Assembly (NCBI GenBank): GCA_050331235.1
Contig: JBHJHA010000050.1
Coordinates: 1 to 58,808, forward strand
Origin: Leptolyngbyaceae cyanobacterium
GTDB taxonomy: Bacteria > Cyanobacteriota > Cyanobacteriia > Phormidesmidales > Phormidesmidaceae
Reading direction: 5' to 3'
DNA length: 58,808 nt
Under the pieces are notes generated by a model that worked only from the letters and a program-made list of their open reading frames with translations, was not told the DNA's origin and did no database searches. The position numbers were made by a program, and so were the translations under genes. Below are positions 42,147 through 44,351 of this stretch, piece after piece. Every line of letters begins with the position of its first letter. Positions within the stretch are counted from its first letter, which is position 1.

Positions 42147-43544
42147 TTAGGACGAAATTGAGGCGTTATGGTTTTTGACTTCAGTTTCGCTAGCTTCTCG
42201 CAACGATAGTGGTTTGGCTGATAGAGAAATTCTGAGCCAACCGCCGCCCGTTTCAGGATGATTGAGCGCCTGCATAGTTCCCCCATGGGCTTCGGTGATT
42301 TGCTGGGCGATCGCCAGGCCTAAACCAGTGCCGTTATTGCTGGTTCCTGTTAAGTGTCCGTGGACATTACGCGATTTTGTCTGGGCTTTGCTATCGGCAA
42401 GTCGTGAACGAGAGGGGTCAGCTCGATAAAACCGATTGAAAATATAGGGCAAGTCACTTTCCCTAAAGCCACTGCCCTCATCGATGAAATCAATATGGAG
42501 TTTTTGAGGAAGAGCGGACGTGACTTCTGGGGCAATGGGCTCAAATCCCGCGCGGATGAATATGGTGCCTTCGCGTGGGCTGTACTTAATCGCATTGTCA
42601 ATGAGGTTAATAAAGACTCGATGCATCAAGGCTTCGTCAAGTTGCACAATCAAATCTGAGGTCCCTTCATAGGCAATTTGCACCTGCTTGATGTCAGCCA
42701 ATGGCTCCAAGCTTTGCCAAGCCGCCAAAATCAAGTGAGGTAATTCCACTGGTTTTAAGGTTAACCCAGTGCCGCCACTGCGCTCTAGACGGCTCAGGTT
42801 AAGAAGATCTTCTACCAAGTTACCTAACCGCAAAATTTCATTGAGCAGTCGATCAAGCCATTTTTGAGAAGTCGGATCGACTTTCTCCCTGAGTGTTTCA
42901 GCGACTAGGCGAATCGAAGTTAGCGGTGTTTTCAGCTCATGGGCTACATCTGAAGTCCAGCGATCGCGCTGCCGCATTAGCATTTCTGCCTCTTGGCGGT
43001 TCTCCAAAAAAATCCCAACGTGGTTGTTTTCTAAAGGGATGCCATATCCCCTGAGAGGATAGGCAACGCCCCCATCTGGATTGATCGGATCAGGTGTGAC
43101 AAGGTTTAATTCCCAATCGCGCTCACAAGGTTGACGGGCTGCACGGGTATTCTCAATTAGCTGGTCCAGCTCAAACGAACGCACAAGCTCTAACAGCAGT
43201 CGCGGTGTCGATAAAGTTGGGTTTTGAGTCTGGGCTGCTTCCGGAATGCCCAGCATGCCACCAGCTAAGGGATTGATCCAAGTGAGTTGGTTCTCGTCAT
43301 CAACTTCTAAATAGCCGATGGGTGCCCTTTGCAGCAGCGAGTAATCAGTCGTTATCAGGCCGCGGCTCTGCTGTTTGCCGGGCAGTTCCCATTTCAGGGC
43401 CTCAGCAGGCCCAAAATCATTTGAGTTCGATGGCTGATGGGCAGGGGTTGCACCAGTTTTGAAAACCGTTCCTTTTGCGAGCCAACCTAGCCCAAAGCCT
43501 GCGATCGCACTAGAAAAAAGGAATAGCCCTGTCATCGTAGTCAT
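42147..43544 (-). CDS. sphS: PhoR/SphS-like phosphate sensor histidine kinase
   Basis: N-terminal [19 protein letters not shown]-like region, [50 protein letters not shown] and GTGLGLAIA. Confidence 0.8.
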
Positions 43545-43644: not shown

Positions 43645-43668
43645 AAAAAAGGCACCCGTAGGTGCCTC
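43645..43668 (-). terminator. Rho-independent terminator of the DUF4278 cassette
   Basis: Minus strand reads aggcacc-tacg-ggtgcct followed by a T run. Confidence 0.85.
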
Positions 43669-43725
43669 TTCATTTCCAGTAATTGCGCTTAAAACAGTTT
43701 GCGCTAAAGCTTTAAAGGTAATTGC

Positions 43726-43896
43726 TTACTTAACTTTTGCGCCACGATAAACCAAGCCATCAACCCGATTTGCGGTCTGGTCTTGGGCCACGCGTCGAGT
43801 TAGAGTCGCCCCGCGATACTGACCGATGACCTCTTCGACAAACTGAATCTGAGTATTAGGTGCGCTGTATTCTGCACCGCGATAACGTAAAGTCAT
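43726..43896 (-). CDS. DUF4278 small protein B (56 aa)
   Basis: MTLRYRGAEY...GQYRGA...LVYRGAKVK with three YRG motifs and a GGAGG RBS. The ORF track's longer start runs into the riboswitch. Confidence 0.9.
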   Translation of the reverse strand: MTLRYRGAEYSAPNTQIQFVEEVIGQYRGATLTRRVAQDQTANRVDGLVYRGAKVK

Positions 43897-43933
43897 TGGA
43901 TCCGCCTCCAGTAGTGAATAGTAGAGATATAGA

Positions 43934-44000
43934 GGCGCGTTCCTTCGGAGCATCAGCCCCTACTTCCGTTCAGACGGCATGACCAATCTGAATGAACGAT
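43934..44000 (-). promoter_or_regulatory. Glutamine riboswitch (glnA RNA motif, class I), copy B
   Basis: Minus strand reads AUCGUUCA-[UUCAGA..UCUGAA]-CGGAAGUA-[GGGGC UGAU GCUCC]-GAAGGAACGCGCC, matching the glnA-motif consensus. Confidence 0.92.
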
Positions 44001-44021
44001 TGACAGACAAAAACGGTCAAA

Positions 44022-44192
44022 TTAACGGACCTTTGCGCCACGGTAGGTTAAACCTTCAATGTGCTGGTCAGGGGCATTAGTTGCAACTCGACGAGTTACC
44101 GCTGCTCCGCGATATTGACCGATTACTTCTTCAAAGTAGTTGAAGTTTTTCTTGCGGGTTTCGTATTCCGCACCACGATAACGTAAGCTCAT
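44022..44192 (-). CDS. DUF4278 small protein A (56 aa)
   Basis: MSLRYRGAEY...GQYRGA...LTYRGAKVR with a GGAGG RBS. Paralog of 43726-43896. Confidence 0.9.
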   Translation of the reverse strand: MSLRYRGAEYETRKKNFNYFEEVIGQYRGAAVTRRVATNAPDQHIEGLTYRGAKVR

Positions 44193-44239
44193 ATTTCGCC
44201 TCCAATTGACAACAAGGATGTTGATCGTGTAGTGAAAGA

Positions 44240-44306
44240 GGCGCGTTCCTTCAGAGCAATAACTCTTACTTCCGTCCTTTCCAGATTGTCTGGTCGGATG
44301 AACGAT
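44240..44306 (-). promoter_or_regulatory. Glutamine riboswitch (glnA RNA motif, class I), copy A
   Basis: Minus strand reads AUCGUUCA-[UCC..CCAGA CAA UCUGG..GGA]-CGGAAGUA-[AGAG..CUCU]-GAAGGAACGCGCC. Confidence 0.92.
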
Positions 44307-44315
44307 TTGCTTTCT

Positions 44316-44351
44316 GTATTCAATAATACGGTTTTCTCCTGGGATTGTCAA
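44316..44351 (-). promoter_or_regulatory. Sigma70-type promoter with an NtcA box overlapping the -10 element
   Basis: Minus strand TTGACA (44351-44346), 17-nt spacer, TATTAT (44328-44323). GTA-N8-TAC (GTAttattgaaTAC) spans 44316-44329. Confidence 0.8.

Follow-up and report, generated by a model that had tools for sequence, protein, structure and literature searches.

In Synechocystis sp. PCC 6803, gifB (sll1515, encoding IF17) has an RF01739 aptamer with an anti-RBS platform, an NtcA box before the leader start and a gene that begins with DUF4278 (PMC6212724). Glutamine binding and translation switched ON are established for this leader, and in the model presented for it the first C after P1 forms a ligand-induced long-range pair (PMC6212724). 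The combination of a riboswitch, NtcA and a short DUF4278 gene is likewise already published, for PMM1846/yfr6 of Prochlorococcus MED4, where a glutamine-ON switch precedes a DUF4278-only microprotein (PMC6212724, PMC6316151). Glutamine aptamers also occur two to three in series as pseudo-cooperative tandem riboswitches (Weinberg 2010, PMC2864571; Sherlock 2022, PMC9481103), of which Sherlock 2022 catalogues 157 doublets and 4 triplets, accepting gaps of up to 300 nt and cautioning about missed ORFs (PMC9481103).

The locus analysed here, an array of repeated switch-gene units, resembles each of these systems and differs from each. While gifB is one switch with one gene, whose product IF17 carries a C-terminal IF7-like GS-inhibiting domain, the array places a DUF4278-only gene behind each of its switches. 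PMM1846 uses a type-2 aptamer (Downstream-peptide, RF01704) in dispersed single units, in a host described in those sources as lacking full-length IFs and PirA, whereas the array has type-1 aptamers in one predicted transcript and lies in a genome with intact gifA, gifB and PirA. The tandems, as characterized by Sherlock 2022 (PMC9481103), have no intervening ORF and a single output, whereas here a conserved 56-codon gene follows every aptamer; with such a gene (dN/dS 0.15) between the aptamers, a pseudo-cooperative tandem was rejected as a description of the array. Since the aptamer gaps here (226-239 nt) fall under the 300-nt limit, overlap with the catalogued tandems is possible, and annotation-based surveys could miscount such arrays as tandem riboswitches. 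No genome among the 60 in Table S1 of PMC6212724 has two RF01739 matches within 1 kb, and no description of switch-gene-switch-gene glutamine arrays was found in the open-access literature searched. The array is a real, conserved element built of known parts in an apparently undescribed arrangement, and it offers a natural design for metabolite gating of every cistron in an mRNA.

Within the window, meaning the whole 58,808-nucleotide stretch of DNA that was analysed, every part named in the original prediction (promoter, switch A, gene A, 21-nt gap, switch B, gene B and terminator) is present on the minus strand:

44346..44351, minus strand: -35 hexamer TTGACA, in the identical position in 13/13 first units of the genus
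44323..44328, minus strand: -10 hexamer TATTAT, with TAnnnT in 13/13 first units
44316..44329, minus strand: NtcA box GTA-N8-TAC over the -10; its centre, near -7.5, is repressive by the positional rule given in PMC6316151
44315, minus strand: transcription start as predicted from homology with the 5' end of Synechocystis gifB
44240..44306, minus strand: glutamine riboswitch aptamer A (RF01739), 49.3 bits, E 8e-8
44237..44243, minus strand: anti-Shine-Dalgarno strand of unit A (CGCCUCU), from predicted folding
44197..44203, minus strand: Shine-Dalgarno sequence of gene A (GGAGGCG), predicted to be paired without ligand, pair probability 0.90-0.94
44022..44192, minus strand: gene A, whose 56-aa DUF4278-only product contains three YRG repeats, from translation, Pfam and dN/dS
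44163..44183, minus strand: codons 4-10 of gene A, RYRGAEY, a match to RYRGSEY at the tip of the PII T-loop
44001..44021, minus strand: 21-nt spacer from stop A to aptamer B, without conserved promoter, NtcA box or terminator
43934..44000, minus strand: glutamine riboswitch aptamer B (RF01739), 52.3 bits, E 1e-8, with P2/P3 diverged through compensatory changes
43931..43937, minus strand: anti-Shine-Dalgarno strand of unit B, from predicted folding
43903..43909, minus strand: Shine-Dalgarno sequence of gene B (GGAGGCG), predicted to be paired without ligand, pair probability 0.99-1.00
43726..43896, minus strand: gene B, for a 56-aa DUF4278-only paralogue, from translation, Pfam and dN/dS
43867..43887, minus strand: codons 4-10 of gene B, RYRGAEY, from a motif search
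43645..43671, minus strand: intrinsic terminator hairpin and U-run, z -5.19, recurring behind the final unit in 8 relatives, while 2 have a different hairpin there

The automatic ORF track starts both genes wrongly, as the prediction had also noted: TTG 44351 and ATG 43953 are longest-ORF starts, and the Shine-Dalgarno positions together with homologues fix the ATGs. Nearly all of the 52 aligned homologues of proteins A and B are 55-58 aa long, and longer N-terminal starts are excluded by these lengths and the Shine-Dalgarno positions.

A single sigma70-like promoter was found between 43300 and 44800 (TTGACA, 17 nt, TATTAT; 11/12 consensus matches), a scan that is not significant alone since shuffled sequence averages 1.3 such sites. 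The combined pattern TTGACA-N16-GTA-N8-TAC occurs once in the 4.8-Mb genome, and every one of the 13 first units known from the genus keeps TTGACA, TAnnnT and GTA-N8-TAC at identical offsets. The proposed overlap of promoter and NtcA site holds, with GTA-N8-TAC at 44329-44316 covering the -10. Because the bases flanking the box and the leader start are those of the Synechocystis gifB 5' end (supplement primers of PMC6212724), we assign the start to 44315, which sets the box at -7.5. Like gifB, the array thus combines an NtcA box in repressive position with a glutamine switch, and by this homology it would be induced in nitrogen-replete cells. Upstream of internal units, neither TTGACA nor GTA-N8-TAC was found within 60 nt (0/11 in the genus, a count that omits one further unit truncated by a contig end), which agrees with the single promoter proposed for both units and disfavours a separate one in front of copy B. 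TTGACC sits just past stop A, and the promoter scan found no -10 at 16-18 nt from it. The terminator hairpin (43671-43645) was listed on the plus strand only by one hairpin scan, and its folding z of -5.2 is for the minus strand. Units A and B likely share one NtcA-repressed dicistronic mRNA.

The glnA-motif identity stood up to an Rfam check, in which both aptamers exceeded the RF01739 cut-off of 35 bits and were the sole Rfam matches in the window; that A and B bind glutamine is inferred from gifB homology. P1 and the core are invariant across 24 genus units, and 6 P2/P3 pairs are altered on both sides. The alignment therefore bears out two aptamers that share a core, differ in P2 and P3 and still pair, and the compensatory pairs support selection on both. 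Across the 24 leaders 98.2% of cells pair, against 31-53% in slid controls, over which the consensus structure has an advantage because it was drawn from the same sequences, and the relatedness of the leaders inflates the shuffle control. The folding z-scores of the leaders are modest (-2.0 and -1.9).

Downstream of P1, the strand CGCCUCU pairs with the RBS at a probability above 0.5 in 22/24 units, and an anti-RBS helix is predicted in each unit of the array, in keeping with the claim that every gene has its own translational gate; the helix is invariant and so gains no support from covariation. In what is a crude model, opening the RBS costs 7.6-9.7 kcal/mol, of which removal of the first C after P1 saves just 1-2, and P1 of unit B is missing from the ligand-free minimum-energy fold. 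The minimum-energy fold of the whole transcript cross-pairs both leaders. An interlocked fold enclosing gene A is not favoured, the ensemble having 3.1 cross pairs versus 26 within each leader. In unit A, the leader between the anti-RBS strand and the RBS (44236-44204, minus strand) is nearly invariant in first units and contains a small extra hairpin that has no counterpart in internal units; this stretch is a possible candidate site for a further regulator.

The subfamily is present in 13/14 genus genomes and an array of 2-3 units in 9/14. Complete units on one contig were found in seven genomes, two in G000, G008, G009 and G013 and three in G001, G010 and G011; the second aptamer lies at a contig end in G006 and G007, one unit each is found in G003, G005 and G012, in G002 two genes are split between two short contigs, and G004 lacks the subfamily. 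The G012 copy (L054, C87:8190-8357) has an in-frame TAG at codon 42, with loss of the third repeat, and is either a pseudogene or an assembly error. Spacers measure 14-21 nt across 11 junctions, perhaps about the minimum that keeps a terminating ribosome clear of the next aptamer. First and internal genes form separate clades (support 98 and 97, 24 rows), and three-unit arrays read A-B-B by gene clade. Mean dN/dS is 0.15 for gene A and 0.12 for gene B, so that purifying selection acts on both genes. A recent neutral duplication was rejected, with pS between A and B near saturation at 0.73 and the clades separate. The aptamers do not sort into the A and B clades (3 changes), and the near identity of aptamers 1 and 2 in G010 suggests occasional gene conversion.

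In the family as a whole the subfamily was found in 77/151 genomes, commonly as a single unit; counts outside the genus are lower bounds, taken among the matches listed. At 36 loci picked from the family matches, 36/37 genes have a switch and 35/37 an NtcA-type box, the exceptions being a gene lying at the edge of a contig and an internal unit. The switch-gene-switch-gene arrangement also occurs in two other families. A genome of another genus (G043) shows a recent duplication that lacks an internal box, and G293 (L152) is a counter-example that keeps promoter and NtcA box at each unit. A DUF4278-only gene precedes gifB in at least 4 of 57 genomes of another order and in G309, from a third family; in G263 and G264 such loci still show remnants of an internal promoter. 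At L148-L151 and L153, such a gene with its own switch lies immediately upstream of gifB, which has a second switch, and the f16 versions of this tandem have two YRG repeats only.

Downstream of the array terminator the window encodes a PhoR-like histidine kinase (42147-43544, minus strand), and a gene of this type follows the array at 7 of the 13 other loci tested in the genus, several of them cut short, and in one locus of another genus. A functional link was rejected: because the terminator stands between them and two three-unit arrays sit elsewhere, the adjacency is taken as synteny only. Table S2 of PMC6212724 assigns 4 cyanobacterial glutamine switches upstream of phoR_proteo, which may perhaps be such loci with unannotated microproteins.

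The identity of the products as DUF4278 proteins was upheld by Pfam, proteins A and B, 57% identical to each other, matching PF14105 over their full length (42.8 and 41.3 bits; cut-off 25.3). Their named relatives are cyanobacteria, one of them a Leptolyngbya. Neither protein matches the IF7-like GS-inhibiting domain (NF052599), which GifB and GifA of the host genome match at 90.9 and 81.8, and the two were rejected as IF17 (GifB) for want of this C-terminal domain with its GS-binding arginines. Nor does either match the PirA helical domain (NF050139), on which ground a PirA identity was rejected, and no NCBIfam family was found for A or B. A PDB sequence search gave 3 weak matches, none credible, Foldseek with a low-confidence monomer returned nothing at E 0.001, matches in the ESM Atlas were confined to DUF4278 clusters (below 0.9), and PII is not among the PDB matches by sequence or fold.

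Elsewhere, the host genome encodes gifA, gifB (C28), one GS, one amt and PII, and in all it holds 5 RF01739 matches and 8 DUF4278 genes. PirA occurs in it just once, as a 136-aa DUF4278-PirA fusion (L007:1501-1908, plus strand; G000 C20:69366), whose gene has an NtcA box and no RF01739 match; orthologues with an intact switch occur at L019, L036, L039, L041 and L042, and the host gene likely has a decayed riboswitch. The N-terminal extension of PirA (Ssr0692), treated in PMC8092223 as possibly a false annotation, is DUF4278 in the host's only PirA and in 17 of the 35 DUF4278 representatives longer than 100 aa; A and B, in contrast, have no PirA domain. Those 17 end PirA-like (8 over the cut-off) and 2 others end in IF7A, while several other long representatives have hydrophobic N-termini. 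In P0072, P0115, P0125 and P0188 DUF4278 follows a hydrophobic N-terminus and is likely membrane-anchored. P0097, an IF17, has at least six YRG repeats. Because DUF4278 is also found on PirA and on membrane anchors, it is best regarded as a general portable module, and since it sits on PirA as well as IF7, DUF4278 matches are not readable as gifB homologues, the way PMC6212724 and PMC11288750 take them.

DUF4278 forms the N-terminus of IF17 and makes up many picocyanobacterial peptides entirely; its role matters to cyanobacterial nitrogen control, and the clearest clue to that role found here is the array subfamily, a stand-alone conserved protein with three YRG repeats at fixed spacing and a near-exact PII tip in repeat 1. 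Exactly three repeats are present in 182/200 proteins, with a spacing of 22-24 aa in 380/400 cases; repeat number and spacing are thus fixed and the linkers variable, which suggests that the partner has multiple equivalent sites. In the AlphaFold models, both of low confidence (pTM 0.29 and 0.35), RG lies at the turns of hairpins and a packed core is lacking, and packing of DUF4278 on PirA within one chain was not seen (pTM 0.35).

Repeat 1 of both proteins reads RYRGAEY, against RYRGSEY at the tip of the host PII. RYRGxEY, a motif picked after being seen, occurs 3 times in 3.98 M open-frame residues, in PII, A and B. In a comparison less prone to circularity, with a motif built from 142 distant DUF4278 representatives, the PII tip ranks 14th-16th of 1.9 M positions over six columns, and third among non-DUF4278 sites in the best such ranking; over eight columns it falls to 26-44 because the family has Leu or Gly at PII Glu44. 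Across the DUF4278 family just 9% have Glu at +4 and 58% Tyr at +5, and in A and B the full tip motif is confined to repeat 1, repeats 2 and 3 being without a Tyr51 equivalent. Alignment of DUF4278 to PII by hhalign gave 13% probability over 12 columns and, with no PII among the PDB matches, membership of the PII superfamily was rejected. By sequence comparison, the likeness is a short-motif resemblance and not homology. A and B share with the PII/GlnK T-loop (GlnK-AmtB, PMC3198391; PII-Amt1, PMC6603209) the YRG[S/A]EY tip, a predicted hairpin with an Arg-Gly apex and threefold presentation; unlike PII they have no PII fold and no ATP/ADP/2-oxoglutarate site, carry three loops on one 56-aa chain and would be controlled by synthesis rather than allostery. 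No report linking YRG repeats to the PII loop was found in the open-access literature searched. Weinberg 2010 remarks that a conserved motif in such peptides hints at mechanism (PMC2864571), and may perhaps already state the PII resemblance.

The Arg47 tips of GlnK bound to AmtB are separated by 31.3 A (PMC3198391); 23 residues are enough to bridge that distance. Cyanobacterial PII binds Amt1, as reported for Synechocystis, and S49D weakens this binding (PMC6603209), while PipX and PirA bind PII away from the T-loop tip (PMC8092223). Because PipX and PirA avoid the tip, Amt takes Arg47 and PII-Amt1 binding is known, we rank Amt1 first, GS second and a protease decoy third. In the explanation that we favour, low 2-oxoglutarate would release NtcA from the array promoter, and bound glutamine would engage the C after P1 and melt the anti-RBS helix, both steps being carried over from gifB. 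Each riboswitch would unmask the RBS of its own 56-residue gene, the result being a double nitrogen-replete gate per gene. The peptides would then imitate PII T-loops and, under nitrogen excess, plug or clamp a PII target that has several sites, most likely the Amt1 trimer. More tentatively, RG-tipped hairpins may insert as Arg47 of GlnK does, and Ala at the Ser49 position could make the mimic non-phosphorylatable. The regulatory half of this explanation is highly probable and the mimicry half close to an even call; the two together, as a full account, fall somewhat short of that, and Amt1 specifically is a rather doubtful target. An Amt plug gives no obvious reason for the fusion of DUF4278 to IF7 and PirA, which counts against Amt1.

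The alternative that survives best, though we think it fairly unlikely, keeps the same regulation and has the peptides behave like IF17, binding GS through their DUF4278 repeats and tuning its inactivation, as Klahn 2018 (PMC6212724) reads the Prochlorococcus case. DUF4278 is the N-terminus of IF17, a part that apparently makes the inactivation of GS more effective and yet is dispensable for IF17 function (PMC6316151). The regulation is identical to that of gifB, but gifA and gifB are already in the genome and A and B are without the IF7A domain. In at least five genomes of two other families gifB is immediately preceded by a DUF4278-only gene and an intact internal NtcA box is lacking, the peptides have a positive net charge, and the fixed repeat spacing would suit a GS ring no less than a trimer; the prevalence of PirA-like over IF7A ends (17 against 2 of 35 long representatives) argues, however, that the module is not GS-specific. 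The original prediction had named GS as a first target to test, a suggestion that retains its place among the candidates and is weakened by the missing IF7-like domain and by the fusion of DUF4278 to PirA and membrane anchors.

DUF4278 could instead be a module for stability or degradation control, whose free copies titrate a protease or an adaptor as decoys and thereby keep IF17 and DUF4278-PirA stable in ammonium excess, which strikes us as unlikely. The IF17 N-terminus confers stability that is transferable to IF7, and the factor for nitrogen-dependent IF17 degradation is still unnamed in the account given in PMC6316151. The same module fronts two unrelated inhibitors in the host genome, and expansion in copy number suits titration. 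Marine picocyanobacteria without full-length IFs and PirA nevertheless keep several DUF4278-only genes, and a decoy leaves the PII-tip match and the three-repeat geometry unexplained.

We regard as very improbable a mimic of the PII tip that acts on an enzyme modifying, or activated by, the T-loop, with Ala in place of Ser49 making a pseudosubstrate of a PII kinase (to our knowledge, none has been identified) or with PphA or NAGK as the target. RYRGAEY differs from RYRGSEY by Ser to Ala at the phosphorylated residue (the S49 site, PMC8042125), and induction in nitrogen excess suits keeping PII unphosphorylated. However, PII of Prochlorococcus is unphosphorylated and such peptides are kept there, Ala or Val stands at the Ser49 position family-wide, and three repeats would be unnecessary. 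Least probable of all is that B has its own unrecognised promoter or is a passive tandem copy adding dosage only, for although the L152 tandem keeps promoter and NtcA box per unit, G003 and G005 have single units (as does G012, with its in-frame stop) and G004 none, and TTGACC follows stop A, none of the 11 internal units has TTGACA or GTA-N8-TAC in the 60 nt upstream, TTGACC has no -10 at 16-18 nt, and A and B are old, separate and constrained clades with synonymous divergence near saturation.

Returning to T-loop mimicry, a bolder form of it, which we offer as speculation and hold to be on balance improbable, would make DUF4278 a single-chain copy of the three tips of the PII trimer, with free copies, produced solely upon NtcA release and at high glutamine, plugging the three pores of Amt1, IF7 (as IF17) and PirA tethered there through the module, the dose raised by repeated in-transcript duplication, and some of the catalogued tandem switches being such arrays. 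If true, it would amount to a glutamine-driven ammonium shut-off independent of 2-oxoglutarate sensing by PII.

Other short genes of the host genome and its relatives touch on the same regulon. Behind host glutamine switches lie two hydrophobic microproteins of 41 and 55 aa (L002:1627-1749 and L003:1605-1769, both plus strand), which carry a P[IV]xCW motif and match nothing in Pfam or NCBIfam. Relatives stand behind switches at L021, L023, L028, L029, L033, L056, L057 and L062, and this type is an unnamed membrane-peptide family in the glutamine-switch regulon. Two distant genomes each encode an 89-aa protein downstream of an NtcA box and a glutamine switch (L014:1180-1446, minus strand; L061:3104-3370, plus strand), the L061 copy having no Pfam or NCBIfam match. 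Four further short DUF4278 genes (57-61 aa) have no glutamine switch (L008, L011, L012 and L013, on G000 C2, C46, C54 and C18), and the one on C2 has a GTA-N8-TAC box 64 nt upstream.
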